Notes: generated from the sequence alone by a model not told the origin. Shown: positions 1,397 to 64,000, counted from the stretch's first letter. The stretch is DNA of 64,000 nt from an uncultured bacterium (GCA_964567755.1 CAZMNW010000020.1:110434-174433); one strand, 5' to 3'. Program-made: numbers and translations.

Positions 1397-1449
1397 ATGC
1401 AAGTCATCGCGGCGGTTCTTGAATCCGCCGCGGACAATCACCCGAGGAG

Positions 1450-2127: not shown

Positions 2128-2199
2128 GGTTGCAGCGACCGTGCGGTGCATAGGACACCTGCTGCGTGCAAGCGGTCGAATCAGAGGAGGAGGGCGACG

Positions 2200-4212: not shown

Positions 4213-5067
4213 ATGGATGCAATCGGGCGCAGAGAAGCAGGAATGCAGCGCGCGCGCGTCGTTCCCGAAGGCGAGGCGCCCTGCATCTGGATGTTGGCGG
4301 GTGTCTTGAGCTGTTGGATCTGCGATCTGCAGCTGGACTGTGAGCGCTGCCCTCTGGATGCGGCACTCCGACACGAGACGCGGCGTTTGCTGAAGCCGCC
4401 GGTGGATGCGGTGCTGGACCGCGCAGCCAACGCGCGGCCAGCCTCCGAGTCCGCGGCGCCGGAGAATCCGAGTCGAGAGCAAGGCGTGCATGATCTCGAG
4501 ATGCGAGATCTCCCCGCGCTCGACCCGGACGCCCTCTACTCGCGCGGCCACCTTTGGGTGCGATTCGAGGCCGATGGCAGGGCGCGCGTCGGCCTCGATG
4601 CATTCGCCGCCCGAATCGTCGGGCGGCTGCGTTGTGTTGTGCTGCCACTCGTCGGCTCACGCCTGCAGCGGGGGCGGCCTTGCACTTGGCTGGACCAACC
4701 CGGGGGAACCTTGACGTTGCTGGCACCAATCACGGGTCAGGTGTTGGAATGCAACGAGAAATTGGCTTGCGGCACTGATTTCGAGCTGCACGATTCGATG
4801 GCAGACGCGTGGCTGTTCGTGCTGCAACCTCACCGTCCACGCAAGGAGTCGGCAGCCCTGCTGCACGCCGAGACCTTTTCCGCCATGGTGCAAAGAGATG
4901 TCGAATCATGGCACCAGGCTCTGGTCCAAGCGCTCGACGTCGTGACTATGTCCGGGGGTGAAACGATGGCGGACGGGGGAGTGCCCGTGCACAGCACCAT
5001 CGAGCTCCTCGGATCGCGCGGGATGCATCGACTGGCAGCTCGATATCTGCATCCGTCTCGCGCTTGA
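4213..5067 (+). CDS. GcvH-like protein 2, Cys-rich N-terminus, lipoyl-lysine position not conserved
   Basis: RBS GGGAGGAG then ATG; YSRGHLWVRFEADGRARVGLDAFAARIVG matches the GcvH N-terminal beta-strands; the lipoyl position reads GGTLTLLAPITGQVLECN (no Lys); N-terminal CWICDLQLDCERCP. Confidence 0.55.
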   Translation: MDAIGRREAGMQRARVVPEGEAPCIWMLAGVLSCWICDLQLDCERCPLDAALRHETRRLLKPPVDAVLDRAANARPASESAAPENPSREQGVHDLEMRDLPALDPDALYSRGHLWVRFEADGRARVGLDAFAARIVGRLRCVVLPLVGSRLQRGRPCTWLDQPGGTLTLLAPITGQVLECNEKLACGTDFELHDSMADAWLFVLQPHRPRKESAALLHAETFSAMVQRDVESWHQALVQALDVVTMSGGETMADGGVPVHSTIELLGSRGMHRLAARYLHPSRA

Positions 5068-9283: not shown

Positions 9284-11128
9284 TTACGGAGACCGTCCCG
9301 GTGTCGGTGCCTGGAGCACGTGAGACAGACTGTCGGCAGCCGCTGACCGCCCGGTCGTTCGGTACAGGCTTCCCAGTGCACCCAAGGTCGCCGCGAGATC
9401 TGGGTGCAGGATGTCCAGCTGCTGCCGCTGAATGGCGAGCGCCTCGGCGAGCGCGGCTTCCCCATCCGCATATCGCCCCAGATCGATGAGAATCGTTCCG
9501 AGGTCGGTCAGGCTGGCTGCGACTTCAGGGCTCTGGTCGCCGAAAGTCGCACGCTGCGCATCCACCCCCATCTCGTACATGGCCCGTGCGCGATCGAGGA
9601 CACCGATCTCGCGATAACCGCGCCCGAGAGCCTGATACAGACGTCCCCCCAACTCGGGTGAGTCGATCGCCGTCCGAACGCGCTCGGCACGTTCGTCCAA
9701 GACCTGTCGAGTGAGAGTCGGGTTCTCGCGCTCGTGCTCCGAATCGGAGCCGGCAAGAATCTCGAGCACGAGGGCGCTCGCGCTGCGGGCCTTCTCAAGC
9801 GCGACCAGGGCCTCATCACGCTCTTGTCGTGCACTTCCGGCTTGCCTCGCCGTCCCGACCAGCCCGGCGCCGAAGACGAAGACGACGATCGCGACGGCGG
9901 TGATGGCCGCGCGACGGCGAGAACTCGTGCTCCCGAGGCGGTCGATGAAATTCTGCCGCCTCGGCCCCACAAGCTGGCCCGCCTGGGAACGTTCGAGATC
10001 CTCGAGTAGCGTTTGCACGGAGGGGTAGCGGTCGGCGGGATTCTTTCCCAGCGCCTTGAGCGCGATATGGTCGAGGTCTCGCACCAACTGCTTACGCCAG
10101 CCACGCTGGCGCGCAGGCGTCTCCGCTCGCGCGAGCGCCATGCTCGGGGCCACGGCTTGCGCATGAATGACCGCCCGGGAGACCTCTCCCGGCGCCGAAG
10201 CGCGCGGGCCATGCGGCCATTGGCCAGTCAACAGTTCGTAGAGTACGACCCCGAGAGAGAAGACGTCCGTGGCCGTCGTGACCGGCTCGCCGAGGATCTG
10301 TTCGGGAGCGGCGTAGTCGAGGGTGAGTCGCGGTCGAGACGAAACCGACGTTGCATGCTCGGGGTCCAGGAGCTTGGCGATGCCGAAGTCGAGGAGCTTC
10401 ACCTCTCCGTGATTGGACACGAAGATGTTGCTTGGTTTCAGATCCCGATGCACGATCAGGTTCTGGTGCGCGTACGCCACGGCACGGCAGGCCTGTTGGA
10501 ACAGGCGCAGTACGGAAGCTAGGTCCTCGCTGCGCCGCACGCAGTAGTCGGTGATCGGCTCGCCCTCCACGTACTCCATGGCGAAGTAAGGCAGACCATC
10601 CTCGGTGGTGCCTCCGTCCACGAGTCGAGCAATGTGCGGGTGATCGAGTCGAGCCACGATGCGGCGTTCCAGGACGAAGCGCGGCAAGACTTCGTCGGGG
10701 TCGAGGCTCCCCTTCATCAATTTGATCGCCACGCGTTGTTCGAACTCGCCGTCGGCGCGCTCTGCCAAGTACACCACGGCCATGCCGCCGCGACCGATCT
10801 CGCGCACGATGCGCCAGGGGCCAATCCGGTGTCCTGGCCCCACGGGTTCTGGATCGCGGCCGCCGCGTCGCGGCTCTCGTGCGCTCGTCAACGCTTCGGG
10901 AACGAGCTCCAGCGCCGGGCGCGCGAGGAAGTCCTCGGCGCGTTTGTCGGCGGCAAGCAGCTGCTTGACACGATCGCGCAGGTCCTGGTCTGTGCCACAG
11001 GCACGATCCAGGCAGCCCTCGAGCTCCGACGCCGGAAGTTCGAGAGCCTCGTCGAGCACTTGGGCGATGCGCTGCCAGCGTGCCGAGTCGACGGCGCTGA
11101 GCTCCGCTCTGAAGCGCGGAGGTCTCAT
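9284..11128 (-). CDS. Ser/Thr protein kinase with transmembrane segment and C-terminal TPR-like repeats
   Basis: Kinase subdomains: GRGGMAVVYLAE, VAIK, HRDLKPSNIF, DFGIA, APE; TM AAITAVAIVVFVFGAGLV; TPR-like C-terminus. Confidence 0.85.
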   Translation of the reverse strand: MRPPRFRAELSAVDSARWQRIAQVLDEALELPASELEGCLDRACGTDQDLRDRVKQLLAADKRAEDFLARPALELVPEALTSAREPRRGGRDPEPVGPGHRIGPWRIVREIGRGGMAVVYLAERADGEFEQRVAIKLMKGSLDPDEVLPRFVLERRIVARLDHPHIARLVDGGTTEDGLPYFAMEYVEGEPITDYCVRRSEDLASVLRLFQQACRAVAYAHQNLIVHRDLKPSNIFVSNHGEVKLLDFGIAKLLDPEHATSVSSRPRLTLDYAAPEQILGEPVTTATDVFSLGVVLYELLTGQWPHGPRASAPGEVSRAVIHAQAVAPSMALARAETPARQRGWRKQLVRDLDHIALKALGKNPADRYPSVQTLLEDLERSQAGQLVGPRRQNFIDRLGSTSSRRRAAITAVAIVVFVFGAGLVGTARQAGSARQERDEALVALEKARSASALVLEILAGSDSEHERENPTLTRQVLDERAERVRTAIDSPELGGRLYQALGRGYREIGVLDRARAMYEMGVDAQRATFGDQSPEVAASLTDLGTILIDLGRYADGEAALAEALAIQRQQLDILHPDLAATLGALGSLYRTTGRSAAADSLSHVLQAPTPGRSP

Positions 11129-11694
11129 AGTTCCTCGGTTGCGCTCAGGCTCTCGTAGAGAAGGGCGCGGGCTTTGCGCCAGTCGCGTTTCACCGTGCGT
11201 GGGGCGACATCCATGACGTCCGCGGTCTCCTCCACCGAGAGGCCGGCGAAGAAACGCAGCTCGACCACACGCGCGAGCCTCTCGTCCAACATGTACAAAC
11301 GGGCGAGCGCTTGGTCGAGGGCCAAAATTTCTTCGAGTCGGTCTTCGGAAGCCAACTGCACATCGTCGAGCGCGACGCGTGTGAGGTTCCCACCGCGTTT
11401 GTGTGCCAGGCGGCGGCGGGCGTAGTCCACCACGATCTGACGCATGGCGATGGCCACGACCGAGAAAAAGTGCCGGCGGTCGTTGAAGTCGAGCCGGCTC
11501 TGATCGAAGAGCCGGAGGAAGGCCTCGTGCACGAGAACGGTGGGACTGAGGGTTTGGGCGGAGGTGCCGACGTACAGCTTGGCGCGCGCCATGGCATGAA
11601 GCTCATCGTAGACCAGCGGCAACAGCTCGCCGAGCGCCTCGCGGCGCCCGTTGCGCAGGTCCACGAGCAGTGTCGTGATTCCGTTGTCCGGCAT
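11125..11694 (-). CDS. ECF-type RNA polymerase sigma factor (SigK/ECF-STK-associated type)
   Basis: Region 2 (LVYDELHAMARAKL...VHEAFLRLF) and region 4 (ELRFFAGLSVEETADVMDVAPRTVKRDWRKAR); 4-bp overlap with the downstream kinase gene. Confidence 0.85.
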   Translation of the reverse strand: MPDNGITTLLVDLRNGRREALGELLPLVYDELHAMARAKLYVGTSAQTLSPTVLVHEAFLRLFDQSRLDFNDRRHFFSVVAIAMRQIVVDYARRRLAHKRGGNLTRVALDDVQLASEDRLEEILALDQALARLYMLDERLARVVELRFFAGLSVEETADVMDVAPRTVKRDWRKARALLYESLSATEEL

Positions 11695-37345: not shown

Positions 37346-37867
37346 ATGGGTGCGCATCGAATCGCAAATGCACGCGATCGGGATGAGCAGCGGAGGCTCT
37401 ATCGGGGAATCCATGCCAAAGCGCGGCTGAACCCCGTTCGCTCGAGCGGCGGTGCGATCTTGGTCTTTGCGTTGCTGACCGTGCCGGCAAGCTTACTTGT
37501 CTTGCCGCGGCAAGTGTGGAGCCAAGTGGACTTTTTCCAACCGCCTTCCTTGATCTCGAGTCAGGACCGCAATACGCAGGGCGTCGCTCTGGGGGACGTC
37601 GATCGCGACGGCGACCTCGACCTCGTGCTCGGGAACTACAGGCAAAGCGCGACGCTCCATCTCAACTCCGCAGGGACTCTCGGTTCGATGCCGGCTTGGT
37701 CCTCCGACCTTCCGCATCGGACGACGAGCGTCGTTCTAGGAGACACTGACGGCGACGGCGATCTCGACCTCGTTTGTGAGAACTTCGCGCAGAGAACGAC
37801 GCTGTATTTGAACGAAAACGGCAGCTTCGGCGTCGAACCGGCTTGGTTTGCAGGCCGGTGCGCTTGA
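37346..37867 (+). pseudogene. internal-deletion remnant of an FG-GAP paralog (N-terminal ~165 codons joined to the extreme 3-prime end)
   Basis: N-terminal signal-like sequence and two or three FG-GAP repeats; its last ~30 nt plus the downstream spacer (gcgcttgaaatgaatcggttttttt...cgaaggcc...gaaaATG) match the 3-prime end and junction of paralog A (cgtgctcttgagatgattctttttt...cgaaggcc...gaaaATG). Confidence 0.45.
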
Positions 37868-43863: not shown

Positions 43864-45807
43864 TCAGTCGCGGCGGCCGCCCTGCAGGAGCCGGCGCAGC
43901 CACGGTTGCCGATCGCGAGTGGAGATCTCGGTTTCCACGAATCCCCTGAAGCAGCGCGAAAACAGCTCCGATTCCCCGTTCTGAGTTTCCAAATAATGCT
44001 TGCGACGCAGGTTCTCGCACACATGGTGCAGCGAGGCCGGGATCTTGCGTCCCTCCGCGACACGGAGTATCGCGCTGCGCTCGTGCGGATCGAAGGCATC
44101 CCACATGAAACGGTAGTGGAAGCGCGCTTCCTCGTAGAAGCGGCGCCGGATCTCGTCGAAATCGGGGTCGCCGCCATGGCCTTCCTCGAGATACTCGAGG
44201 CTGTGGCTGCAGGCGATCTGCAGGAAGAACGGGAACAGGCCCGCCATCTCCAGGATCTGACGCTCGTGAGACAGAAGCGGCCGTTGCACGTCGGCAGAGG
44301 GTACCTCTATGAGCTCGCGCGCTTCGTCGGGGCGGAGCACGCTGAGTGGCAGTGGCGTGAAGATGTTGAAGAATGGCGAGTCACGAATCTCCTGGGTATG
44401 GCAGAGCTGTTGCAGGTCACGCGCCGAAGAAGTGATGTAGGCGACATTGTAGTGATTGGCGAGATAGCGCAAGAAAGAAAAGAACTCCAAATCGAAGTTC
44501 GCATTCGTGGTGATGGCTTCGAACTCGTCCATGAGCAAGACCAAGCGCAAATCGCCGCCGTGCAAACGGTCGACCAAATCCTTGATGCCGCTCAAGTCGC
44601 GACTGCAGTCCGAGACGTCCAAGCGTCCACGTAGCTCGAGATTGGCGATGCCGAGCACCGTATTCACGAACGTATCGAGCGCCATGTTCTTTTGCTGTTG
44701 CAAATCGACGTAGACCATGATGGTCGATTCGTGGTCCTCCAGATGCTGCTCGCGGTTGCGTTTCGTGTAGATGAAATTAAGCAGCGACGATTTGCCGATC
44801 TTGCGGTCCCCGACCACCGAAACCGAACCTGGCGGTGTGGCATTCAAACGCGAGAAGATGCGGTTGACCTCTTGCTTGCGCCCGAAGAAATCCGCGGAGC
44901 TCTTGATCATGACCCGGTTCAAGTACGGATTCTTGAGCTTGGGCGCAGGGCGGGGAAGGGCCTTGGGCAAAGTCATCGTGCGGCTGGTGCTCTGCACATC
45001 CGACGAGACCAGAATCCCTTGCAGTCGCTCGGCGAGCGCCCCCGCTTCGACCGGACGCTGACCCGGCTGTTTGCGCAGACATTGATCGATCAGGCTCACC
45101 AGGGCTTCGGGCGCCTGTGGCGCGGCTTGCTGCACGGGCGGATGCGGGCGGTCGACGATGTTGTAGAGCGTGGACATGAAGTGCTCGGCCTCGAAGGGAT
45201 GCAACCCCGTCACCATCTCGTAAAGAATGACACCGAAGCTGAAAATGTCGCTGGCAGGGGTCGCTTTGTGGCCGTCGATCACCTCGGGAGCCATGTATTT
45301 GAGCGTGCCGGCGATGCCGTGACTGACGGTGACGGACATCCGGTTGATGTCGCGTGCCATGCCGAGATCCAGGATCTTGGCGCGGTCGCTGTCGTCGACC
45401 ATGACGTTGTTGGTCGACAGATCGCGGTGCACGATCTGCAAGCTGTGCAGCGCCTGGAGCCCGCGCGCGACCTGGATCAAAATGCGAAGACTGCGCTCCA
45501 GAGCCAGCGGCGGCTGCTTGGGAATGTCGCGCAGGGTGCGTCCGGGGAAATACTCCATGACCATGTAGGGGACGGACTCGTCCATGTCGTAGACCTGGAC
45601 CACGTTCTCGTGGTTCAGGCTGGCGAGACGGCGGGCCTCGGCCAAAAAGCGTTTCATCTCCTTTTCTTCGGCGATCTCGGGCTTGAGCATCTTGAGCGCG
45701 ACGCGGCGATCCAGTTTCTTGTCGTGACAGAGGTAGACCAGACCGAAAGACCCGTGGCCGAGCGTTTCGAGAACGACGTAATTGTTGCCGAAAATTTGTT
45801 CCGTCAT
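43864..45807 (-). CDS. Ser/Thr protein kinase fused to a C-terminal P-loop NTPase (AAA-like/STAND-like) domain
   Basis: Kinase motifs GHGSFGLVYL, VALK, HRDLSTNNVMV, DLGMA, APE; then NPYLNRVMIKSSADFFGRKQE...VSVVGDRKIGKSSLLNFI (Walker A) ...LVLLMDEFE (Walker B). Confidence 0.85.
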   Translation of the reverse strand: MTEQIFGNNYVVLETLGHGSFGLVYLCHDKKLDRRVALKMLKPEIAEEKEMKRFLAEARRLASLNHENVVQVYDMDESVPYMVMEYFPGRTLRDIPKQPPLALERSLRILIQVARGLQALHSLQIVHRDLSTNNVMVDDSDRAKILDLGMARDINRMSVTVSHGIAGTLKYMAPEVIDGHKATPASDIFSFGVILYEMVTGLHPFEAEHFMSTLYNIVDRPHPPVQQAAPQAPEALVSLIDQCLRKQPGQRPVEAGALAERLQGILVSSDVQSTSRTMTLPKALPRPAPKLKNPYLNRVMIKSSADFFGRKQEVNRIFSRLNATPPGSVSVVGDRKIGKSSLLNFIYTKRNREQHLEDHESTIMVYVDLQQQKNMALDTFVNTVLGIANLELRGRLDVSDCSRDLSGIKDLVDRLHGGDLRLVLLMDEFEAITTNANFDLEFFSFLRYLANHYNVAYITSSARDLQQLCHTQEIRDSPFFNIFTPLPLSVLRPDEARELIEVPSADVQRPLLSHERQILEMAGLFPFFLQIACSHSLEYLEEGHGGDPDFDEIRRRFYEEARFHYRFMWDAFDPHERSAILRVAEGRKIPASLHHVCENLRRKHYLETQNGESELFSRCFRGFVETEISTRDRQPWLRRLLQGGRRD

Positions 45808-45809
45808 GT

Positions 45810-48020
45810 CTACCCTTCCTCGCGCAGCACACGCAGCTTCTGTGCTTCCCAGACCAGCTCGAGGCGCTGGCCTGGCTGAATATCCACCGCGAGCTTGTCG
45901 CTCTTGCCGTCACGGAAAACGACTTCGATCGTATGCCGACCGGCCGAGATCTCTTGTTCCCCAGAGCTCGGCAGCTCGCCCGAGCCCACCTGACGCTCGT
46001 CGATGTAGATACGCGCTGGGCGGTCACCGCGGACGAGCAACATTCCCGCGGGCACCGAGCTCAGGCGCAGACGCAGGTGCTTGGTGGAGTGATCCACGAC
46101 CAAGGTCGTGTCCACCATGACGTACCCGGCCATCTCGGCGCGGAAGAGATGCGAGCCGAATGCGAGCGCCGCGATCACGAGCGGGGCGACACCGCGTTTC
46201 TGGCCGTCGACATGGATCTCTGCCCCGTCAGGGATGGTGACGATGTTCAGGCTCAGTGTGATGGGTTCGAGCCGGACACGGATCGCGATCGTCGTATCGG
46301 GCAGCACGCGTACCGATCGTGCCAGAGTTTGGAAGCCGTCTTGTCGCACCTCGATCGCATGCTCGATGGGGACCCCCAAGCGGGTGATTTCAGCCGTCCC
46401 GGTGCCTATCTCGTTGCCGTCGATCCAGATACGAGCCGTCGCGGGATCGGCCTCGATGCGCAGCGCACCGTGTTGGGGTTGCAAAGCCACCCGAACCGAA
46501 GCGGAATCGGTTGCAGCAACCCGGGTCACGAGCGTCGAATCGTGAAAACCGGGCGCGCTGAGCACGAAACTCACATCGCGGTTCGCAGCAACGGCACGTT
46601 CGAACCGCCCCATGGCGACCGGTTGGCCGTCGAGGAGGATTCTCGCTTCAGGCGGCTCGACGACGAGACGAAGAAAGCCGCTCCTCGAGGCCACGAGGGC
46701 GGGCGGATCGATGCCCGCCGCGTCAGCTCCGTCGTCCGCCGGTTGTGATCGTGGCCAGAGGGCCCAGCTCCCCACCACGAGACCGGCGACGCCTGCGGCC
46801 GCGAGCGCCACCCATCGGGCCCGCCGCGACGGCGGCGAACGGAACGCGAGCCCCTCTTCGTGCATCACCTGCCAGACGGAATGCATGCGCCGGATCCACA
46901 GGCGCCAGAGGTCCATGCGAAACGCGAATTCAGGCGGTCGCACGTCGCTCTTGGTCAGCAGCTCTTGCTTGAAGAGAGTTTCCAGAGCCGTGGAAATCTC
47001 GGGACGCGTGAGACGTAGAGGGTAGTTTCCATTCTTGAGCGTGATGGTGAGATGTTCGGCGCTGGCGTGGCCGCTGGCGGTCTCGATGCTTTCCGCCAAC
47101 AACGCGAGCGTCAGTTTTTGCTCTCGCTGCAGCGTGTCCCACAAGAACGTCATCTGCGGGAATGGATGCTCCACGATCATCTCGACGACCACGTCCAGGA
47201 TGGCGGCGGTGACCGTGTTCGTGCGGTCTTCGTTCAAGGCGTCGACGAGGTACTGGCACACCGCCTGAGTGAAGAAGGGGTGCCCGGCGGTGAGACGCAG
47301 GATCGATTGCACGGTGTCGTCGGCGTACGTCACCCGACCGCTCACGGGTTGCTGGATGAGACGCAGGGAATCCGCCGGTTGCAAGTAGCTGATGCGACGG
47401 TATTCGTGCGCTTTCTCGAGAATGCCCCAGTACTCTGTGCGCCGCTCTTCCAGGTGCTGCGAACCGGTGAAGATGAGGAACATCGGCAAGTTCTCCATGA
47501 GATTGGCGAGGATGAGAAGAACGTCTTTCGTGAGTACGCCGTTGTCGAGTTTGTCTTCGAACAACTCGTACTCGTCGAAGAGCAGCAGGAGCTTGCGATG
47601 CGGACAATGCTCGAGTACGGATTCGATGAAGGAGCGGAACACGGCCGAAGGATTGCCGCGGGCGAAGTCCGGGATCTCCAGACTGCGACCTTCCTCCGCG
47701 AGCTGTTCGACGACTTCCTTGGCGATGAGTGACAGGAACTCCGTTTCGTCCTCCACCGCCATGGCTTGCATGTCGATGAGAACGGGGATGAACTCGCTGC
47801 CGAGTCGTCCCTGCTGGATCTGCAGCAGGATCGAGGTCTTGCCGCTACGGCGCTCGCCGCAGAAGACCATGAGGGAGCCACGGCCGGCCTGCTTGAAACG
47901 TTTCTGCACCAGCTCGAACTCGGACTCGCGGCCGAAGAACATCTCCGGATTGCGCACGGGATTGCCGACGATGAAGGGATTCGGAGAGATGGGTACGAAC
48001 TCGGGAGGCGTCGGGCTCAT
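45810..48020 (-). CDS. P-loop NTPase (same family as the kinase-fused domain) + TM helix + tandem PEGA domains
   Basis: NPFIVGNPVRNPEMFFGRESE...LMVFCGERRSGKTSILLQI (Walker A) ...LLLLFDEYE (Walker B); TM WVALAAAGVAGLVVGSWALW; C-terminal repeated PEGA-like segments (ARILLDGQPV..., ARIWIDGNEIG..., AEIHVDGQKRG..., ARIYIDERQVG...). Starts 3 bp after the upstream kinase-NTPase stop. Confidence 0.8.
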   Translation of the reverse strand: MSPTPPEFVPISPNPFIVGNPVRNPEMFFGRESEFELVQKRFKQAGRGSLMVFCGERRSGKTSILLQIQQGRLGSEFIPVLIDMQAMAVEDETEFLSLIAKEVVEQLAEEGRSLEIPDFARGNPSAVFRSFIESVLEHCPHRKLLLLFDEYELFEDKLDNGVLTKDVLLILANLMENLPMFLIFTGSQHLEERRTEYWGILEKAHEYRRISYLQPADSLRLIQQPVSGRVTYADDTVQSILRLTAGHPFFTQAVCQYLVDALNEDRTNTVTAAILDVVVEMIVEHPFPQMTFLWDTLQREQKLTLALLAESIETASGHASAEHLTITLKNGNYPLRLTRPEISTALETLFKQELLTKSDVRPPEFAFRMDLWRLWIRRMHSVWQVMHEEGLAFRSPPSRRARWVALAAAGVAGLVVGSWALWPRSQPADDGADAAGIDPPALVASRSGFLRLVVEPPEARILLDGQPVAMGRFERAVAANRDVSFVLSAPGFHDSTLVTRVAATDSASVRVALQPQHGALRIEADPATARIWIDGNEIGTGTAEITRLGVPIEHAIEVRQDGFQTLARSVRVLPDTTIAIRVRLEPITLSLNIVTIPDGAEIHVDGQKRGVAPLVIAALAFGSHLFRAEMAGYVMVDTTLVVDHSTKHLRLRLSSVPAGMLLVRGDRPARIYIDERQVGSGELPSSGEQEISAGRHTIEVVFRDGKSDKLAVDIQPGQRLELVWEAQKLRVLREEG

Positions 48021-54981: not shown

Positions 54982-55158
54982 GCGCTCTCATCCGACTGCG
55001 AGCACTCCTCACTGTATCCATTTTCAGCGGCCCCGGCGCGACTGGTTCCTTTGGAAACACAAACGGCCGGACCGCTGGAGCCGATCCGGAGCACGGCTCT
55101 AACTAATTATTGAATAGATACTTACACTATCCAAAGGAAAGGGGAAACTTCCCCAACC

Positions 55159-55174
55159 CGGCACGTTCCTGGCA
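55159..55174 (+). promoter_or_regulatory. sigma-54 (-24/-12)-like promoter motif CGGCACGTTCCTGGCA, preceded by palindrome GGGGAAACTTCCCC (55141-55154) and an AT-rich tract
   Basis: GG and GC at canonical spacing, about 30 bp upstream of the ImcH-like cytochrome start codon; GAGGAAGGGAG RBS follows. Confidence 0.35.
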
Positions 55175-55204
55175 GATCAGCCTGATCGAGGAAGGGAGAC
55201 CACA

Positions 55205-56623
55205 ATGCTGCGAGGTCTGGTCAACTTCATCGGGCGCGCCAGCGGAGATGCCCTCGGTCTGATCGCAATCACCCTCTTGGGTGTGACTGGGGTGACCTTC
55301 CTGGGGCTCATGGCTGTTCAGCTCACGAGCCGGGAGCTGTCGCCGTACCTCGGAATCGTCATGTATCTCGTGCTCCCGGCCGCATTCGCCACCGGGCTCG
55401 GGCTCCTCGGGCTGTCGCGCTGGCGCGTGCGGCGAGCGCAGAGGAGCGGCCGGCCGGTCCCGTGGCAGCTCGACCTGACGAACCCGGCGCATCGCGAGCG
55501 TCTCGGTGTCTTCGCCTTCGTCGCGCTGGCCAGCATCATCATCTTGGCGCTCAGCGCCTACCACGGCGTGCATTACATGGACTCGACCAGTTTTTGCGGC
55601 GAAGTGTGTCATGTGGTGATGGAACCCGAGTTCGCGGCGTATCAGAACTCGCCGCATGCACGCGTCAACTGCACGGACTGCCACATTGGGCCGGGCGCCA
55701 GCTGGTTCGTGAAGTCGAAGCTTTCCGGCTCGCGGCAACTCCTGGCGGTGGCGCTCAAGACCTACCCGCGTCCCGTGCCGGCTCCGATCGAGAATCTACG
55801 TCCGGCACGCGAAACGTGCGAGCAGTGCCACTGGCCCGCGAAGTTCCACGGCGATCGCATGAAGGTCCACCTGCGTTTCCAAGAAGACGAAGCCAATACG
55901 GCGCTCAAGACGGTTCTCCTGCTCAAGGTCGGTGGCGGCAGTCTCGAGTCGGGGTTTGCGGAAGGCATCCACTGGCACATGAACCTCGCCAATCGCATCG
56001 ACTACCGCGCCGACGAGAACCGCGAGAAGATCTACTGGATCAGGGTCGAGGACCGGGATGGCCACGTGCGCGAGTACTGGAAGGAGGATGGCCTCGAACG
56101 GCAGGCGATTCTGGCGCTGCCGGCGCGCCGGATGGATTGCATGGATTGCCACAACCGTCCCACGCACGAGTTCGACCGGCCGAGCGAAGCGCTGGACGAG
56201 GCGCTGCAGACCCGACAGATCGCTCCCGATCTGCCGTTCCTCAAGCGCGAGGGGCTCCGATTGTTGCAGTCACCGCACGCGACCAAGGCGGAGGGCGTGC
56301 AGAGCTTTGCGCCAGGGCTCGTCGACTATTACGCGCGCGAGTATCCAGAGCTCGCAGCGGCACGACGAATCGACATCGAGGCTGCCGCCGCCGTGCTGCA
56401 GTCGATCTACGCGCGCAACATCTTCCCGGCGATGAACGTGACCTGGGGTACGTACCCGAATCACATCGGACACCAGGACGACGGCGGCTGTTTCCGCTGC
56501 CATGACGAAGGACATACGACCGATGACGGGCAGACGATCAGCCAAGATTGCTCGACCTGTCACGTGCTCCTGGCTCACGAGGAGGCGGATCCAGAGGTGC
56601 TGCGGGTCCTGCGTGGCGAATAG
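55205..56623 (+). CDS. inner-membrane multiheme c-type cytochrome, NapC/NirT-superfamily, ImcH-like
   Basis: Three N-terminal TM helices, then CGEVCH...CTDCHIG (NapC/NirT-like spacing) plus CEQCH, CMDCH, CFRCH, CSTCH (six CxxCH). Confidence 0.8.
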   Translation: MLRGLVNFIGRASGDALGLIAITLLGVTGVTFLGLMAVQLTSRELSPYLGIVMYLVLPAAFATGLGLLGLSRWRVRRAQRSGRPVPWQLDLTNPAHRERLGVFAFVALASIIILALSAYHGVHYMDSTSFCGEVCHVVMEPEFAAYQNSPHARVNCTDCHIGPGASWFVKSKLSGSRQLLAVALKTYPRPVPAPIENLRPARETCEQCHWPAKFHGDRMKVHLRFQEDEANTALKTVLLLKVGGGSLESGFAEGIHWHMNLANRIDYRADENREKIYWIRVEDRDGHVREYWKEDGLERQAILALPARRMDCMDCHNRPTHEFDRPSEALDEALQTRQIAPDLPFLKREGLRLLQSPHATKAEGVQSFAPGLVDYYAREYPELAAARRIDIEAAAAVLQSIYARNIFPAMNVTWGTYPNHIGHQDDGGCFRCHDEGHTTDDGQTISQDCSTCHVLLAHEEADPEVLRVLRGE

Positions 56624-56700: not shown

Positions 56701-58731
56701 ATGCGAGCCTGCCTCGTCACCCTGATCTCGATGTTGTGCATGGGCGTGCTGACCGCGAGCGGTTCACTGCGGGCGCAGGAGGCGCCTGTGACCAACGCTT
56801 GTCTCGAGTGTCATGGTACGGACGGCGTGCGCGATGCGACGCAGCCGCTCGACGGGATGAGCGTATTCCGGGGAGACTGGGAAGCCAGCGTCCATGCTGG
56901 GTTGGAATGCACGGATTGCCACACCAGTCTGCAAGCGCTGCCGCATGATGTGCCGTTGCCGCGCGCCGAGTGCTCTGCCTGCCATCCGGATGAAACACGA
57001 GCTTACGCGCAAAGCACGCACGGGCGGCTCTGGGCCGCGGGTGACAGCCTGGCGCCTTCCTGTGCCCAGTGTCACGACCCGCACGCGGTGCGCCCCTCCG
57101 ACGATCCTACGAGCGTCTTGCATCGCACCCATTTGGCCGCTGTTTGCATCGTCTGCCATGGAGATGCCAACGGGGTGGGTGCGCGTCCGACCGCCGTACC
57201 CCGACCGGCCCAAACGTACGCTCGCGGCGCGCATGCGCAAGCGATGGCTGCGGGCAACCAAAAGGCAGCGACATGCAAGGATTGTCACGATAGCCATGCG
57301 GTTCTCGGCGCCAGCGATCCGGCATCGCCGATCTACTACAGCAATGTTCCGCACACCTGCGGGCGTTGCCACGTGCAGGAATTCGAGGCTTACCACACCA
57401 GCGTGCACAGCGCCGGTGCCGAACAGGGAGCGACGGGATCACCCGTGTGCAACACCTGCCATGGCGAGCATGCGGTGGTGGATTTGGGCGAGGCCGGGCA
57501 GTCCGCCGTCGTCGCCAGCGAGACCTGCGAGAGCTGCCACCAAAGCCCGGCCTTGGCACGGCGCTACGATTTGCCGGCGGGAGCGGTGGCTTCGTACGAG
57601 GACAGCTACCATGGACGCGCGGCGCGCGGGGGGCTGGCGCGGGCTGCGGGTTGCACCAGCTGCCATGGAGTGCACCGAATCCTGGCGGCCGCGGATTCCG
57701 CCTCGTCCATTCATCCGGCAAACCTGACGGTCACGTGCCGCCGCTGCCACGAACAGGCGAGCGCGGAATTCGCCACTTCCTACGCCCATGCGCCGCGCGC
57801 CGCGTCGGCGGCCGACCGCGGCACGGCGACCGTACGCAACATCTATGGATGGCTCATCGGGATCGTCATTGGCGGAATGTTGCTGCACAATCTGGTGCTC
57901 TTCGCACACGACATGCGCCGGCGCTGGGCGCATCATCGCGCGCACGCGACGCACGTGCGGCTCGTAGGCAGCGAGCTGCGGCAACACGCGGTGCTCCTCG
58001 TCACCTTTTCGGTCTTGGTGTTCACCGGTTTCGCCTTGAAGTACGACCACACCTTCTGGGCCCGCTGGCTCGAGGCGATCGGCATGACCGAGGAGGTGCG
58101 GCGAATCGTGCACCGAGTCGCCGCGGTCGGCATGATCTTGGTGTCGATCGCGCACATGGTCTACCTGTTCGGCCGGCGCGGGCGCGAACAGCTCGGTCAC
58201 ATGACCCCGCGGATGCTCGACTTGCACGAGCTGGGGCAAAACCTGTCGTACCACTTGGGGCGGCGGTCGATGCCGCCTGCATTCTCCCGCTTCCGTTACA
58301 TCGAGAAGGCAGAGTACTGGGCACTGCTGTGGGGCACGATGGTCATGGTGGCGACGGGTCTCGTGCTCTGGTTTCCCGACCAGCTGCGGGGACCGAGTTG
58401 GCTGGTGCGCGTGGCCGAGGCGGTGCATCTCTACGAAGCCTGGCTCGCTTTCCTCGCCATCGTCGTCTGGCACTTCTTCTTCGTCATGCTGCGGCCGGGA
58501 ACCTTCCCGCTCTCCTTCACCGTCTTCACGGGCCGCATGGAACCGGAGGAGCTCGAGCACGAGCACCCCCAAGAGTTCCACGCGCTGGCACCGCGTCGCC
58601 TGCACCGGCCACCACCCGGGACACCGGAGCCGCCCGCATCGGCAGGCTCGGGCGCACCGATCGAGCCGGCCGGTGGCGACGAGACACCGCCGCTTCCGGG
58701 GGCGGACCACGAGCCGGGACCGCGATCGTGA
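56701..58731 (+). CDS. CbcL-like fusion: periplasmic multiheme cytochrome c (11 CxxCH) + C-terminal diheme cytochrome b-type membrane domain
   Basis: Signal MRACLVTLISMLCMGVLTASGSLRA; 11 CxxCH motifs; C-terminal 4-5 TM helices with conserved His (LHNLVLFAHDMRRRWAHH..., VAEAVHLYEAWLAFLAIVVWHFFF) as in HydC/FdnI-type b cytochromes. Confidence 0.85.
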   Translation: MRACLVTLISMLCMGVLTASGSLRAQEAPVTNACLECHGTDGVRDATQPLDGMSVFRGDWEASVHAGLECTDCHTSLQALPHDVPLPRAECSACHPDETRAYAQSTHGRLWAAGDSLAPSCAQCHDPHAVRPSDDPTSVLHRTHLAAVCIVCHGDANGVGARPTAVPRPAQTYARGAHAQAMAAGNQKAATCKDCHDSHAVLGASDPASPIYYSNVPHTCGRCHVQEFEAYHTSVHSAGAEQGATGSPVCNTCHGEHAVVDLGEAGQSAVVASETCESCHQSPALARRYDLPAGAVASYEDSYHGRAARGGLARAAGCTSCHGVHRILAAADSASSIHPANLTVTCRRCHEQASAEFATSYAHAPRAASAADRGTATVRNIYGWLIGIVIGGMLLHNLVLFAHDMRRRWAHHRAHATHVRLVGSELRQHAVLLVTFSVLVFTGFALKYDHTFWARWLEAIGMTEEVRRIVHRVAAVGMILVSIAHMVYLFGRRGREQLGHMTPRMLDLHELGQNLSYHLGRRSMPPAFSRFRYIEKAEYWALLWGTMVMVATGLVLWFPDQLRGPSWLVRVAEAVHLYEAWLAFLAIVVWHFFFVMLRPGTFPLSFTVFTGRMEPEELEHEHPQEFHALAPRRLHRPPPGTPEPPASAGSGAPIEPAGGDETPPLPGADHEPGPRS

Positions 58732-61517
58732 ACGCACACCGGTCGCGCATCGTCGGGCTCTGGATCGCGATGCAGATCCTCGCCTTGGCGCCGGCAGTCG
58801 GCGCAGCCCCCGTTTCGGTTTGCCTCGAATGCCATTCCGACGCCGATCTCGCCACGGAGCGTCAGGGGCAGACGGTGTCGCTGTTCGTCGACCCCGCGAT
58901 CCTGCAGCAGAGCGTGCACCGGGGGCTCGAGTGCGATGATTGCCACCTGGACGTGGATGTGGAGAACCTGCCGCATCCCGAGCGTTTGCAGCCGGTGCAC
59001 TGCGCGACTTGCCACGACGATGCGCAGGTGGATTTCGACGCCAGCATTCACGGACAAGCGCTGAACCGCAATGCACCCTTCGCGCCTTCGTGCCGCGAGT
59101 GCCACGGCACCCACGACATTCGCTCGGCCGCAGATCCGACGGCCCCGACCTACAAGATGAACGTGCCCTTCCTCTGCGGGCGCTGCCACCGGGAAGGCGC
59201 GCCCGTGTCGCGTTATTACGACATCTCGGAGCACAACATCCTGGAGAATTACAGCGAGAGCGTCCATGGGGAGGCTTTGTTCAAGAAGGGGCTCATCGTC
59301 ACGGCCACCTGCACGGACTGCCACGAGGCGCATCGGATTCTGCCACACACCAATCCGCTTGCATCCATCGCGCCGCGCAACATCGCCAAAGCCTGCATGA
59401 AGTGCCACACTCGCATCGAGCAGGTTCACGTGCAGGTGATTCGCGGCGAGTTGTGGGAGAAGCAGCCCGGCGCCATCCCGGCCTGCTCCGACTGCCACGT
59501 GCCGCACAAGGTACGCAAGGAATCGATGGAGCTGCTCCTGTCGGATCGGGATTGCATGAAGTGCCATGCCGCTTCCGACGTGCACAAGGTCGTGGACGGC
59601 GAGAGGGTCCCGCTCACCGTGAGCGTGGAGGACATTGCCACCTCGGTGCATCAGAACATCGCCTGCGTCAAGTGCCACTCCGACGTGGACCCGCGCCGCC
59701 GGCGGCCGTGCGAGACGGCGGGCGCGGCCAATTGTTCGAATTGCCACGTGCGCATGCAAGACGAATACCGTGAGAGCGGCCACGGCAAGGCCTTCGCCGC
59801 CGGCGTCAAGCAAGCACCGACGTGCACGACCTGTCACGGCACTCATCGCGTGCTCGGACACCAGGACGAGGCCGCTCCGGTCTATCGCGCCTCGGTGCCA
59901 GAGCTGTGCGGCAAGTGTCATCGTGCCAATGGCGCCGCAGGGGAAGTGGCGCAACTGTCGCAGACGACGGCGCTGGCGGACTATTCGTCCAGCGTGCATG
60001 GGCGTGCACTGACGGAGAAGGGGCTGCTGCCGAGCGCCGTCTGCATCGACTGCCACGGATCGCATCTGATTCTCGGTCACGCGGACGAGCGCTCGAGCGT
60101 CTTCAGCCGCAATGTGCCGGGAACGTGCGCCAGCTGCCATCGCGGCATCTACAAGCAGTACGCCAAGAGCATTCACTTCGGCGCGCGCAATGAAAAAGGC
60201 GAGAAGTTGCCGAACTGCACCGACTGCCACTCGGCGCACACCATCCAGCAGGTCGAGAAGGACCAGTTCATGCGCGAGGTGACCGATCAATGCGGTTCCT
60301 GCCACCGGGATCTCGCCGCGACCTATCTGGAAACGATGCATGGCAAGGCCTACCGGCTCGGCTACACGGGGTCGGCGAAGTGTTCCGACTGCCATGGAGC
60401 GCACGAGATCCTGGGCACGGACAATCCACTCTCGACCGTCGGCATGCGCCACATCGTCGACACTTGTAAACAGTGTCATGCGGACGCGACGATGCGGTTC
60501 ACCGGTTATCTCACCCATGCGACGCATCACGATCCGGTCAAGTATCCGGCGCTCTACTACACGTACTGGGCCATGACCTTGTTGCTGGTCGGAGTGTTCG
60601 GGTTTTTCGGTCTGCACACTCTGATGTGGCTGCCGCGGTCGTTCCGCGCCCTGCGCGAGCGGCGCGCCCATGCCGCCGCCGGCGAGCCACGGCACTACAT
60701 CCAGCGCTTCACCCGCATCCAGCGGCTGACGCACCTGTTCGTCATCCTGAGTTTTCTGACGCTCGCGCTCACCGGGATGATGCTCAAGTTCTCGTCCATG
60801 CCGTGGGCCGGCTTCATTGCCGGGGCGCTCGGCGGCGTGCGTGGAGCCGGCATCATTCATCGCATCGCGGCCTGCGTCACCTTCGGCTACTTCATCCTGC
60901 ACTTGGGAACCCTGCTGGCGATGAAACGCCGGCGGCGCATGAGCGTGAAGCAGCTCGTGTTCGGCGCGAACTCGCTGATGTTCAATCGGCGGGACCTGAG
61001 CGAGTTCTTGGCGACCTTGCGCTGGTTCTTCCACCGCGGGCCACGCCCGGCCTACGGCCGTTGGACGTACTGGGAGAAGTTCGACTATCTGGCGGTGTTC
61101 TGGGGCGTGGCGATCATCGGCGCCTCGGGTCTGCTGCTGTGGTTCCCCGAGTTCTTCACCCGCGTGCTCCCGGGCGCCTTGATCAATGTCGCGACGATCA
61201 TCCACAGCGACGAGGCGTTGCTCGCCGTCGGCTTCATCTTCACCATCCACTTCTTCAACACGCACCTGCGGCCCGAGGTCTTCCCGATGGACACGGTGAT
61301 TTTCACCGGTCTCGTGCCACTGGCAGAATATCGCAAGGACCGCCCGGCGGAATACGAGGCGATGAAAGCAAGTGGCGAGCTGGCCAAGCGCGTGCGCCGG
61401 CAGACGATCTCGAAGCGGGCCGAAATCATGGTCCGCATCTTCGGTTACACGTTTCTCGGCATCGGCATCGTCCTCATCGGCCTCATCCTCTATTCGGTGC
61501 TGCGCGGCTACAAGTAG
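58728..61517 (+). CDS. CbcL-like fusion paralog: about 19-heme cytochrome c domain + C-terminal cytochrome b-type membrane domain
   Basis: Start uncertain (GTG 58728 overlapping the upstream stop, or ATG 58770); about 19 CxxCH motifs; C-terminal TM helices with His ligands (THHDPVKY, IIHRIAACVTFGYFILHLG, IIHSDEALLAVGFIFTIHFFNTHL). Confidence 0.85.
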   Translation: MNAHRSRIVGLWIAMQILALAPAVGAAPVSVCLECHSDADLATERQGQTVSLFVDPAILQQSVHRGLECDDCHLDVDVENLPHPERLQPVHCATCHDDAQVDFDASIHGQALNRNAPFAPSCRECHGTHDIRSAADPTAPTYKMNVPFLCGRCHREGAPVSRYYDISEHNILENYSESVHGEALFKKGLIVTATCTDCHEAHRILPHTNPLASIAPRNIAKACMKCHTRIEQVHVQVIRGELWEKQPGAIPACSDCHVPHKVRKESMELLLSDRDCMKCHAASDVHKVVDGERVPLTVSVEDIATSVHQNIACVKCHSDVDPRRRRPCETAGAANCSNCHVRMQDEYRESGHGKAFAAGVKQAPTCTTCHGTHRVLGHQDEAAPVYRASVPELCGKCHRANGAAGEVAQLSQTTALADYSSSVHGRALTEKGLLPSAVCIDCHGSHLILGHADERSSVFSRNVPGTCASCHRGIYKQYAKSIHFGARNEKGEKLPNCTDCHSAHTIQQVEKDQFMREVTDQCGSCHRDLAATYLETMHGKAYRLGYTGSAKCSDCHGAHEILGTDNPLSTVGMRHIVDTCKQCHADATMRFTGYLTHATHHDPVKYPALYYTYWAMTLLLVGVFGFFGLHTLMWLPRSFRALRERRAHAAAGEPRHYIQRFTRIQRLTHLFVILSFLTLALTGMMLKFSSMPWAGFIAGALGGVRGAGIIHRIAACVTFGYFILHLGTLLAMKRRRRMSVKQLVFGANSLMFNRRDLSEFLATLRWFFHRGPRPAYGRWTYWEKFDYLAVFWGVAIIGASGLLLWFPEFFTRVLPGALINVATIIHSDEALLAVGFIFTIHFFNTHLRPEVFPMDTVIFTGLVPLAEYRKDRPAEYEAMKASGELAKRVRRQTISKRAEIMVRIFGYTFLGIGIVLIGLILYSVLRGYK

Positions 61518-61602: not shown

Positions 61603-63384
61603 TCAGGCAGGCAGCTTGCGGATGCGAAGAGCGAGGCCGACGAGGACGACGAGCACGAACACGAGCGACAAGGCCAAGCCGCGCCGGCGGAGTTGCAGCT
61701 CGCGCACGCCCTTCTGTGCCGCCGCGAGTGCGGCGTTGGCGTGCGCGAGTCCTTCCTCGTGCTTGCTCGCGAGATTGGCGGCTGCATCGGTGCCGCCGAA
61801 CGCGTGCACGAGCACCTGCATCTCGATCTGAGAGTCCACGGCGCGATCGAGGGCGAGGAGCGCTTCACGCACCTCGACGCCGCCGCGCCGCGCGCGCAGC
61901 AACATGCGCTCGGCTCGGGCCGTCGCGCCGGTCACCTCCTGAACGCGCTGCAGGTGGTTGCGCGCTGTGTCGAGGCCGATGGCGCCGGCGGCGAGCTTCG
62001 GTTCGGCGGCATGGCAATCGCTGCAGCGCTTCACGCGGTCGGTGACGGTGCTGCCCGTGGCCGGATCGACGAAGCTGTAGTGGATCTTGCCAATGCGGAA
62101 CTTCTCGAACAGCCGGGCAAATTCGGGCCGCAGGGGGACCGACCCTGCTTCGTCGGACATCTGCGTGTGCGTGGGCAGCTCCAACGCACGGTCCACGAGC
62201 CAGTCGAAGAGATGCTCGTCGTCGAGGCCGCGGGCTTCCGGACGCTCCAGGAGCGCCGCCAAGGTCTCGGCATAGCGGGCGCGCGTGGCCTCGGGTTCCG
62301 GGACGATGTCGGACAACAAGGACTCGTGGCAGAAAGCGCAGGGTGTCGCGGGGAGGGGGGCGAGCAACGCCACGGTTGGTCGCACGATGGAGTGATTGCC
62401 ATGGCACGTCGCGCACTCCGAGAACGAACGGAGGTTCCGTTGCGCCGCCGGCTCGCTCGTGTCGTGGCAGGCGGCGCAGCCTTCGCGACCGGCGTCCTGC
62501 AGCAGGGCATTGTGCTCGACCAGCCCCGCATGTTTGGCGCTGGCCCGAAACAATCCCGCCTCGCGACCATGGCATTGGCCGCAGACGAATGAAACATCGT
62601 CGAGCCCGGGCGGTGCGGCGCCATGATTCCCATGACAGTCATTGCACGTCGGCGCCGACAAGTCCCCCTTCTGGTGCATGGCATGGGCGTGCACGCTCTG
62701 CTGCCAGCGAGCGTACTGATCGACCGGGAGTGGCGTGCCATCGGGCTTCGAGGACCCGCGCATGTGGTTGGCGTTGCCGTGGCAGCCATTGCAGGTCTCG
62801 GCGACGCGCTTGGGGTAGACGCGGGAATCCGGCTCGCTCGGCCGGCGGATGCCGTGCACACCATGACAATCGACGCAGGTCGCCACGCGCAAGTCTCCCT
62901 CGCGCAGCCGCCGTCCATGGTGGCTGGTGGCGTACTCTTGCTCCTGGTCCACGCGCGCATCGGGTTTGAAGCGCCTCATGAAGACGGGATCGGAGTGGCA
63001 ACGGCCGCAGAAGGCCGGCACGCCGGCCCGGCCCGGTGCCCCGCGGTACGGGTTGGCCGCGTACTGCGACTGCATTGATGCTTCCATGTCGGTCGCGAGC
63101 GCCGCATCGGGGTTGCCGCCGTGACAGTCGTGGCAAGAAAGTCCAACCTGCGCGTGGACATCGGCGGCGAAGGCCTCGACGATGTCGCGCACGGTGTTGG
63201 CGTCGAAGAGATCGGTGTTGCTGTGACACGCCACGCAAGAGGTGGCCGGGAGCCGGGTGGCTGGCGTCGCTGCGGGGTTCGCCGCAGCGGGCGGATTTTC
63301 CTGTGCAGACGCAAGCGAGACCCAGCACGCGCCGAGCGCGGCGAGGGTGACTCGCGACGTTCGTTTTCGGGTGGGGAATCGCAT
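61603..63384 (-). CDS. membrane-anchored multiheme c-type cytochrome (11 CxxCH, C-terminal TM helix), CbcA-like
   Basis: Signal VTLAALGACWVSLASAQE; CVACH, CHDCH, CGRCH, CVDCH, CNGCH, CNDCH, CGQCH, CAACH, CATCH, CAFCH, CSDCH; C-terminal LALSLVFVLVVLVGLAL. Confidence 0.85.
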   Translation of the reverse strand: MRFPTRKRTSRVTLAALGACWVSLASAQENPPAAANPAATPATRLPATSCVACHSNTDLFDANTVRDIVEAFAADVHAQVGLSCHDCHGGNPDAALATDMEASMQSQYAANPYRGAPGRAGVPAFCGRCHSDPVFMRRFKPDARVDQEQEYATSHHGRRLREGDLRVATCVDCHGVHGIRRPSEPDSRVYPKRVAETCNGCHGNANHMRGSSKPDGTPLPVDQYARWQQSVHAHAMHQKGDLSAPTCNDCHGNHGAAPPGLDDVSFVCGQCHGREAGLFRASAKHAGLVEHNALLQDAGREGCAACHDTSEPAAQRNLRSFSECATCHGNHSIVRPTVALLAPLPATPCAFCHESLLSDIVPEPEATRARYAETLAALLERPEARGLDDEHLFDWLVDRALELPTHTQMSDEAGSVPLRPEFARLFEKFRIGKIHYSFVDPATGSTVTDRVKRCSDCHAAEPKLAAGAIGLDTARNHLQRVQEVTGATARAERMLLRARRGGVEVREALLALDRAVDSQIEMQVLVHAFGGTDAAANLASKHEEGLAHANAALAAAQKGVRELQLRRRGLALSLVFVLVVLVGLALRIRKLPA

Positions 63385-63394
63385 GCACTCCCTT

Positions 63395-64000
63395 TCAATC
63401 GCGGTGCATGCCGCGACCGAGAACGACGACGACGAGACCGGTGCCCAACACGACGGCCACCGGAACCCACGAACGGTAGCCCCAGGTGGTCATGCCGACG
63501 ACATAGGCCAGACCCAGCACGCCGATGGCGGTGAACAGCGGGCTTCGCCCGTCGCGGACGATGCGCCGATCGAGGAAAGGCACGAGCAGCATCCCGACCC
63601 CAGCGACGCCGAACAGCAGGATCGGAATCGCCTCGTATTCGATCCCTAAGATCTCGCCACCGGGCACCAGCTTCAGGGTCTGGAACATGAACATGAAGTA
63701 CCACTCGGGCTTGATGTTCTTGTAGGCCGGTGCGAATGGATCCGCCTTCTCGCCGAGCTCCCACGGGAACAACGCGGCAAGACTGGCTAGCGCCGCCAGC
63801 GCCAAGATCCAGCCGAAGAGGTCGCGCAGGAGAAAATCGGGCATGAACTTCATGTGGCGACTGGGCCGCGATGCGTATCGCGGCGGCACACTCATCCCGT
63901 GCACCTGCACCAGGACGACGTGCAGTCCGAGGAGGAGCAAGGTCAGCGCCGGCAGGATCGCCACGTGCCAGCCATAGAAACGCGACAGAGTGCCACCGCT
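63395..64000 (-). CDS. cytochrome b (bc-complex type) C-terminal / subunit-IV-like region; 5-prime end beyond window
   Basis: KPEWYFMFMFQTLKLVPGGEILGIEYEAIPILLFGVAGVGMLLVPFLDRR matches the PEWY quinol-site motif region of cytochrome b/PetD; the frame stays open to the window edge; ends 10 bp upstream of the 11-heme cytochrome gene. Confidence 0.6.
   Translation of the reverse strand, partial: SGGTLSRFYGWHVAILPALTLLLLGLHVVLVQVHGMSVPPRYASRPSRHMKFMPDFLLRDLFGWILALAALASLAALFPWELGEKADPFAPAYKNIKPEWYFMFMFQTLKLVPGGEILGIEYEAIPILLFGVAGVGMLLVPFLDRRIVRDGRSPLFTAIGVLGLAYVVGMTTWGYRSWVPVAVVLGTGLVVVVLGRGMHRD

Follow-up and report, generated by a model that had tools for sequence, protein, structure and literature searches.

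Two probable sigma-54 (-24/-12) promoters heading respiratory operons in an uncultured bacterium

The stretch of DNA analysed here, hereafter the window, comprises 64,000 nucleotides from an uncultured soil bacterium (GCA_964567755.1 CAZMNW010000020.1:110434-174433). Near its beginning, a string of plus-strand genes encodes redox proteins followed by a histidine kinase and a response regulator, as assigned by Pfam and NCBIfam (redox genes), Pfam and translation (kinase), and domain matches (regulator):

1459-2127, plus strand: membrane-anchored GcvH-like protein
about 2197-2985, plus strand: 4Fe-4S HmcB/HybA-like protein
about 2982-4172, plus strand: NrfD/HmcC-like membrane protein
4213-5067, plus strand: second GcvH-like protein
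5216-6967, plus strand: HAMP histidine kinase with two transmembrane (TM) helices
6964-8316, plus strand: NtrC-type response regulator (Response_reg receiver, AAA+ Sigma54_activat with E=2e-67, Fis-type HTH_8)

The GTG at 1459 is likely to be the true start of the first gene, given that the lengths of about 50 homologs all fall near 222 aa. None of the operon proteins reached a curated cut-off in NCBIfam. The N-terminus of the second GcvH-like protein is rich in Cys, and the protein has no evident lipoyl-lysine. Homologs of the first gene were sampled over a graded range from 92% to 48% protein identity, and the DNA of eight relatives was retrieved (among loci L161-L169). The four redox genes occur in the same order in L161, L162, and L166-L169. 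What comes next varies: the kinase and activator genes in the window, L162, and L168; an ECF sigma/zf-HC2 anti-sigma pair in L166, L167, and L169; and neither of these pairs in L161.

A preliminary description of this DNA had reported an NtrC-family activator in the window, which is borne out by the translation of 6964-8316 with its intact GAFTGA motif, Walker A motif, and receiver aspartate. Orthologs of this regulator are 450 aa long; in NCBIfam it comes closest to AtoC, NtrC, and ZraR, with every score under the equivalog cut-off, and no other sigma-54 activator is encoded in the 64 kb window. Since a regulator with an intact GAFTGA motif is a genuine sigma-54 enhancer-binding protein, we infer that the genome must use sigma-54, with rpoN lying outside the window. 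The kinase gene, preceded by a 148-nt gap with room for a separate promoter, encodes a periplasmic domain of about 165 residues, spanning approximately aa 63-226, between the two TM helices. Two motifs reside in this domain, a CXXCH at aa 147-151 (CHRCH) and a CX4CH at aa 189-195 (CFTAPCH), both of which recur unchanged in the L162 and L168 kinases; no Pfam domain covers the periplasmic region. Judged by these motifs, the kinase is a putative haem-based periplasmic sensor of redox state or of a ligand.

The second operon starts at 55205 and consists of cytochrome genes assigned by Pfam together with motif and TM counts:

55205-56623, plus strand: ImcH-like gene
56701-58731, plus strand: CbcL-type gene, 11 haem motifs and cytochrome b
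58728-61517, plus strand: CbcL-type gene, 19 haem motifs and cytochrome b

Genes 2 and 3 overlap by GTGA (58728-58731). Members of the ImcH family are characterized by three N-terminal TM segments, an adjoining atypical CX3CH motif, and 5-9 CX2CH motifs (PMC6295460). Gene 1 shares this architecture, with TM-like segments at residues 12-42, 45-71, and 97-123 (approximately), a CX3CH motif at residue 131, and five CX2CH motifs. In the CbcL/MtrH/MtoC family, a periplasmic multihaem cytochrome c is fused to a membrane di-haem cytochrome b resembling FdnI/HydC (PMC6295460); genes 2 and 3 display the same layout, 11 and 19 CXXCH motifs, respectively, being followed by Ni_hydr_CYTB/formate-DH-gamma-like TM domains. 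The operon is therefore not cbcBA-like but combines an ImcH architecture with two CbcL-type fusions. Neither a CbcB, which would be a separate di-haem cytochrome b, nor a seven-haem CbcA is encoded in it, and the activator gene is not adjacent to its promoter site. The downstream multihaem gene is conserved in the four close relatives of this operon, which were obtained by protein search (L171, 90% identity; L170, 77%; L173 from GCA_044870345.1, 76%; L172, 71%). The protein cluster of the 76% relative is named Candidatus Krumholzibacteria, which suggests that the lineage of the window is Krumholzibacteria-like. Convergent toward the end of the operon, the minus strand (61603-63964) encodes a cytochrome with 11 haems and a TM anchor at its C-terminus, together with a petB/petD-like cytochrome b whose gene runs off the window.

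Between the two operons, about 30 kb (11910-43790) are occupied by genes for very large secreted or surface proteins featuring FG-GAP repeats, DUF5122/Rax2 beta-propellers, and FlgD_ig or Por_Secre_tail C-termini. On the minus strand, 9284-11694 encodes a Ser/Thr kinase with TPR repeats adjoining an ECF sigma factor, and 43864-48020 encodes another Ser/Thr kinase, this one joined to an nSTAND2 NTPase and adjoining an AAA/PEGA-domain protein.

Each operon is preceded by a sequence that had been proposed as a sigma-54-type promoter motif:

1381-1396, plus strand: site 1, predicted sigma-54 promoter TGGCTCGTGTCTTGCG (alignment A1 and the leaders of eight relatives)
55159-55174, plus strand: site 2, predicted sigma-54 promoter CGGCACGTTCCTGGCA (alignment A2, L170-L173)

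Both strings are indeed present, and reading of the window revealed exact GG-N10-GC spacing at both (-24 GG at 1382-83 and -12 GC at 1394-95 for site 1; 55160-61 and 55172-73 for site 2). Relative to the consensus TGGCACG-N4-TTGCW, each site has two mismatches and retains both invariant dinucleotides. The two sites are non-coding, co-oriented with and located upstream of the first plus-strand gene of a transcription unit. Their distance to a redox operon is plausible, as had been claimed: from the -12 C to the start codon it amounts to 64 nt at site 1 (GTG 1459, preceded by the ribosome-binding site GAGGAGG) and 32 nt at site 2 (ATG 55205, preceded by GGAAGGGAG). Transcription would accordingly begin at about 1406-1408 and about 55184-55186, respectively.

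The preliminary description had also allowed that such motifs may arise by chance in a GC-rich genome, and as far as similarity alone is concerned this holds. Consensus matches with at most two mismatches number 12 in the window against 11.67 expected from dinucleotide shuffles, and those with at most three mismatches 108 against 109; raw consensus counts within the window were dropped as evidence for promoters since they equal chance. In a position weight matrix (PWM) with approximate frequencies after the Barrios 1999 compilation, which is indicative only, the two sites come 4th and 6th among about 128,000 positions, the remaining four of the top six being located inside coding regions. Within promoter-eligible DNA, defined as the 2,607 nt of non-coding sequence at most 200 nt upstream of a co-oriented gene, sites 1 and 2 are the sole matches of at least 11 bits (2 observed against 0.147 expected from shuffles, P=0.008), although this test was selected once the sites were already known. 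One or both motifs might therefore be chance matches in GC-rich DNA, their conservation reflecting too little divergence among relatives: window-wide counts equal the shuffle expectation, PWM matches as good or better occur inside genes, and the positional test was picked after the fact. Position and cross-species conservation argue against this reading, and it is mainly owing to the latter that the sites are regarded as more than chance. A third intergenic sigma-54-like match of 9.4 bits, TGGTCTTTGCGTTGCT (37461-37476, plus strand), sits in a 507-nt gap upstream of a gene for a 1683-aa FG-GAP protein, about 370 nt before the annotated TTG start.

The five closest site-1 leaders were combined in alignment A1. 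Here, CTGGC and CTTGCG do not vary and are separated by exactly 7 nt, the fixed-length spacer having diverged in the 63% relative (TCGTGT vs GTAGCC), and 10/16 columns of the motif are invariant compared with 15% in the flanks. All eight site-1 relatives (48-92% protein identity) carry a YGG-N9-TTGCG element 63-81 nt before the start codon. Five loci changed in the spacer retain exact spacing between GG and TTGCG:

L162: TGGCGTAGCCCTTGCG
L166: TGGTTCGAAACTTGCG
L169: CGGTTCAAGAATTGCG
L167: CGGTCCGAGATTTGCG
L168: CGGACCCATTCTTGCG

The upstream neighbour varies among the loci and may be a TPR gene, a DUF6448 gene, a divergent MarR gene (upstream of the redox module in L166 and L167), or a POR gene. 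At all loci, the promoter element is kept with or without the kinase/activator pair in cis. Presence of the promoter whatever follows the redox genes indicates that sigma-54 dependence belongs to the operon family rather than to a cis-linked regulator pair. The idea that the promoter tracks the cis-encoded activator and is lost where an ECF sigma/anti-sigma pair takes its place was rejected, since L166, L167, and L169 keep GG-N10-GC/TTGCG. Likewise, a divergent sigma-54 promoter built on the reverse-strand TTGCA at 1399-1403 was discarded for want of a GG at the required spacing. Site 1 is thus, with a high degree of confidence for a prediction of this kind, a real sigma-54 promoter.

Several further elements lie around site 1. 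The -12 box is overlapped by a palindrome, TTGC-GAT-GCAA (1392-1403), that may serve as an operator superimposed on the promoter. Its general form TTGC-N3-5-GCAA occurs in L162, L164, L165/L161, and L168 and is missing from the ECF-type loci L166, L167, and L169. The translation-initiation context GGAGGTGAGT-N3-4-(A/G)TG (window 1444-1461) is near-invariant in site-1 relatives of 48-92% identity, a conservation unusually strong for the region of a ribosome-binding site. The following element lies where the transcript is predicted to begin:

1408-1432, plus strand: GC-rich inverted repeat CGCGGCGG-N9-CCGCCGCG

This repeat is retained in closer relatives, and more distant site-1 leaders have other GC-rich inverted repeats at a similar place; RNAalifold applied to the eight site-1 5′ UTRs yielded no consensus structure.

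Farther upstream, two dyads qualify as candidate upstream activating sequences (UAS):

1148-1162, plus strand: distal UAS candidate, dyad GTTGATTTTCTCGAC, centred about -240 from the site-1 -12 C
1248-1262, plus strand: proximal UAS candidate, dyad GTTGAATTATTCGAC, inside a 23-bp palindrome (1244-1266), centred about -140

Exact matches to GTYGA-N5-TCRAC occur twice in the 64 kb against 0.47 expected, and both are located upstream of site 1, exactly 100 bp apart. With at most one mismatch, dyad density reaches 5.1/kb in the leaders versus 0.36/kb elsewhere in the same loci, a 14-fold enrichment that is inflated because the loci used for counting had in part served to derive the pattern. The agreement in position is independent for L164, L168, and L169, which were not used to define the pattern. 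The proximal dyad is found -131 to -145 from the -12 C in the window, L164, L162, L166, L168, and L169, and the distal dyad -231 to -240 in the window, L164, L162, L166, and L168. In L169 only the copy at -141 was found, the contig ending at about -257. The L161/L165 leaders have a single dyad at -74, and the L167 leader has none. For activators of the NtrC class, a pair of dyads situated over 100 bp ahead of the -24/-12 promoter is the standard arrangement. The search for NtrC-type UAS palindromes that had been suggested was thus successful for site 1, with position-conserved dyads at about -140 and -235, and for site 2 yielded conserved blocks only, as candidate sites.

In the L170-L173 leaders, the site-2 sequence CGGCACG-N-TCCTGGC shows no variation; it is found 28-35 nt ahead of the ATG and scores 11.0-11.3 bits in the PWM. 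In alignment A2, 14/16 motif columns are invariant compared with 19% in the flanks, and the 20 nt on each side of the core have diverged beyond recognition among the relatives. The upstream neighbour is a same-strand DUF2461 gene in the window and L171, a divergent NmrA gene in L170 and L173, and a divergent cytochrome gene in L172, which implies that the element travels with the cytochrome gene. Among the 173 loci fetched, the core is confined to L170-L173. It is absent from 158 distant orthologs (41-52% identity; genome and metagenome scans of 79 and then 158 loci), and the density of sigma-54-like matches upstream of these orthologs (0.27-0.34/kb vs a background of 0.21-0.22/kb) shows no enrichment. 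Control at site 2 is therefore clade-specific and not a property of the gene family. Two distant orthologs have good sigma-54-like sites of their own, L037, a gammaproteobacterial MAG (TGGTATCATGCTTGCT, at about -67), and L076, a Cytophagia MAG (TGGCATTAAAAATGCT, about -46 from the imcH-like start); these may reflect independently acquired sigma-54 control, or chance.

Phylogenetic footprinting against eight relatives at site 1 and four at site 2 thus shows both motifs behaving as functional -24/-12 promoters. That one or both are chance matches was already disfavoured and is highly improbable, given that invariant columns are concentrated in the motifs (10/16 and 14/16 against 15-19% in the flanks), that the site-1 spacer has changed in five loci with its length preserved, and that the distance to the start codon is kept despite differing upstream neighbours. 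The main surviving rival concerns site 2, where the conserved 15-mer might represent an operator or an RNA element of a long 5′ UTR, transcription starting further upstream. A candidate for such a start is offered by two blocks:

55008-55030, plus strand: conserved block 1, CTCACTGTATCCATTTTCAGCGG, about -154 from the site-2 -12 C (alignment A2)
55041-55056, plus strand: conserved block 2, CTGGTTCCTTTGGA, about -125 from the site-2 -12 C (alignment A2)

Each block is unique in the window, and both are conserved in the 71-90% relatives despite different upstream genes. Their spacing of about 21 nt would fit a Bacteroidota-type (FCB-type) -33/-7 promoter, whose consensus includes TAnnTTTG; TTCCTTTG is what we take to resemble this -7 box. 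The -12 box of site 2 departs from consensus (TGGCA, not TTGCA), and three of four spacer bases are conserved along with the -24 and -12 boxes, features that fit a protein operator equally well. Moreover, no activator gene is adjacent in L171-L173. Against these points, the 15-mer agrees with the sigma-54 consensus in six of seven bases of the extended -24 box and keeps the GG-N10-GC spacing exactly, a strength of match encountered at only about 5e-5 per window position; it is not palindromic, unlike most operators, and has no Rfam match, and the putative -7 TTTG reads TTCG in L170 and L173. An operator or UTR element consequently appears improbable, if less so than chance, and the identification of site 2 as a real sigma-54 promoter remains probable, at somewhat lower confidence than that of site 1. 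Under the sigma-54 reading, blocks 1 and 2 become candidate activator-binding sites.

No sigma-70-like promoter was found on the plus strand of either leader. Sigma-70-like matches on the minus strand of both leaders were rejected: they are built on an AT-rich dyad spacer or an AT patch, and the upstream gene is on the plus strand in the window, such that they face no gene. An Rfam scan of both leaders returned sub-threshold noise and no family match, and an IHF consensus between enhancer and promoter was not detected at one mismatch or fewer in any leader. Near site 2, inverted repeats TTCCTTTGGA/TCCAAAGGAA at 55046 and 55130 and GGGGAAACTTCCCC at 55141-55154 are not conserved even in L171 (90%) and were attributed to chance; minus-strand terminator-like predictions rest on those same hairpins and were set aside as well.

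The preliminary description had further envisaged both operons as parts of one sigma-54 regulon on the BccR model, which would place them under the kinase/NtrC-type pair at 5216-8316. In favour of this view, the pair contains the only sigma-54 activator in the window, both operons are respiratory, and they are linked, lying 47 kb apart in the window and about 7 kb apart on the ENA contig ctg4024049 of a relative (L162/L170). A shared regulon is nevertheless not supported, since the conserved upstream elements differ between the promoters. The site-1 dyad was not found upstream of site 2 in the window or in four relatives, except for a one-mismatch match at -342 in L171, and it was rejected as activator site at site 2, where block 1 shows half-site resemblance only. 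Conversely, the site-2 blocks occur nowhere else in the window. In addition, the site-1 promoter is retained in L161, L166, L167, and L169 although these loci lack the pair in cis, which makes cis-linkage a poor guide to the pairing of regulator and target. It therefore seems unlikely that a single regulon comprises both promoters.

Taken together, there is good reason to regard the two sites as working sigma-54 (RpoN) -24/-12 promoters, with a respiratory operon downstream of each. In the circuit proposed for site 1, the membrane histidine kinase would sense periplasmic redox state or a ligand through its conserved haem-c attachment motifs and phosphorylate the NtrC-type regulator. The regulator would then oligomerise on the two GTYGA-N5-TCRAC enhancers about 140 and 240 bp upstream, and its ATPase would remodel the closed sigma-54 holoenzyme complex at TGGC-N7-TTGC, with transcription starting near 1407. 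The transcript probably spans the GcvH/FeS/NrfD/GcvH2 genes and extends into the kinase and regulator genes, which would result in positive autoregulation. The site-2 promoter, 20 nt upstream of the ribosome-binding site, would drive the imcH-cbcL-cbcL-type quinol:cytochrome operon. Since the site-2 blocks differ from the site-1 dyad, we propose that its activator is another enhancer-binding protein or that a different binding mode is employed.

The two-component part of this circuit resembles NtrB/NtrC-glnAp2, AtoS/AtoC, and ZraS/ZraR in combining a kinase and an NtrC-type regulator with tandem dyads more than 100 bp upstream and a GG-N10-GC promoter. As in NtrB/NtrC-type systems, the regulator genes likely lie within the regulated unit. 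The dyad GTYGA-N5-TCRAC, however, differs from the NtrC site (TGCACC-N5-GGTGCA), no IHF site was detected, and the sensor domain of the kinase carries haem-c motifs. In the latter respect the closest parallel is provided by the Geobacter chemoreceptors GSU0582 and GSU0935, in which a periplasmic c-haem sensor domain with a CXXCH motif is located between two TM helices. The same arrangement in the present kinase would imply a covalent haem as sensing cofactor, although in this case the domain is part of a HAMP histidine kinase, has an additional CX4CH motif, and lacks a Pfam match.

In Geobacter sulfurreducens, cbcBA is transcribed from a sigma-54 promoter that requires BccR (bioRxiv 10.1101/2021.04.15.440034), as the preliminary description had correctly recounted, whereas imcH and cbcL are constitutive and unaffected by deletion of bccR (same source). 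Both systems share an activator composed of receiver, AAA+, and HTH domains, a -24/-12 promoter, and an operon for an inner-membrane quinol:cytochrome oxidoreductase, and in both a response regulator is encoded in the operon as well. They differ in their targets, which here are an ImcH-like/CbcL-type operon and a GcvH/FeS/NrfD module instead of CbcBA, in the location of the activator gene, downstream in the same gene string here and divergently upstream in the case of BccR, and in phylum, which is Krumholzibacteria-like here. In its workings the present case thus resembles the BccR circuit, to which it does not itself belong. With respect to the oxidoreductases, the ImcH-like TM/CX3CH layout and the fusions of multihaem domains to FdnI/HydC-type cytochrome b recall Geobacter ImcH and CbcL (PMC6295460). 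These proteins are encoded separately in Geobacter and in one operon under a predicted sigma-54 promoter here, and the likeness is one of architecture. Haem counts differ, Geobacter CbcL having 9 haems (PMC6295460) compared with 11 and 19 in the window.

The regulatory principle is a textbook one, and the most useful outputs of the analysis are the enhancer dyads, the kinase with its haem motifs, and the contrast with Geobacter, in which ImcH and CbcL are expressed constitutively and sigma-54 control is limited to CbcBA. Promoters of the sigma-54 class are tightly off until a specific activator fires. The two quinol-oxidising modules would therefore not be constitutive in this organism and would be deployed on a signal. 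A bolder interpretation, that the haem-sensing kinase and its NtrC partner use sigma-54 promoters to switch between quinol-oxidising modules (GcvH-HmcBC-like and ImcH/CbcL), is doubtful at present, and it is similarly tentative that the membrane-anchored GcvH-HmcBC-like complex it invokes is previously undescribed. If the switching interpretation were true, it would represent redox-potential-dependent rewiring of extracellular electron transfer, analogous to that of Geobacter yet evolved independently and acting on modules that are constitutive there. The promoter and enhancer coordinates and the candidate haem-based sensor kinase provide handles on respiration in an uncultured lineage of the FCB group, and the conserved cis-elements could be used to trace the regulon in a complete genome.
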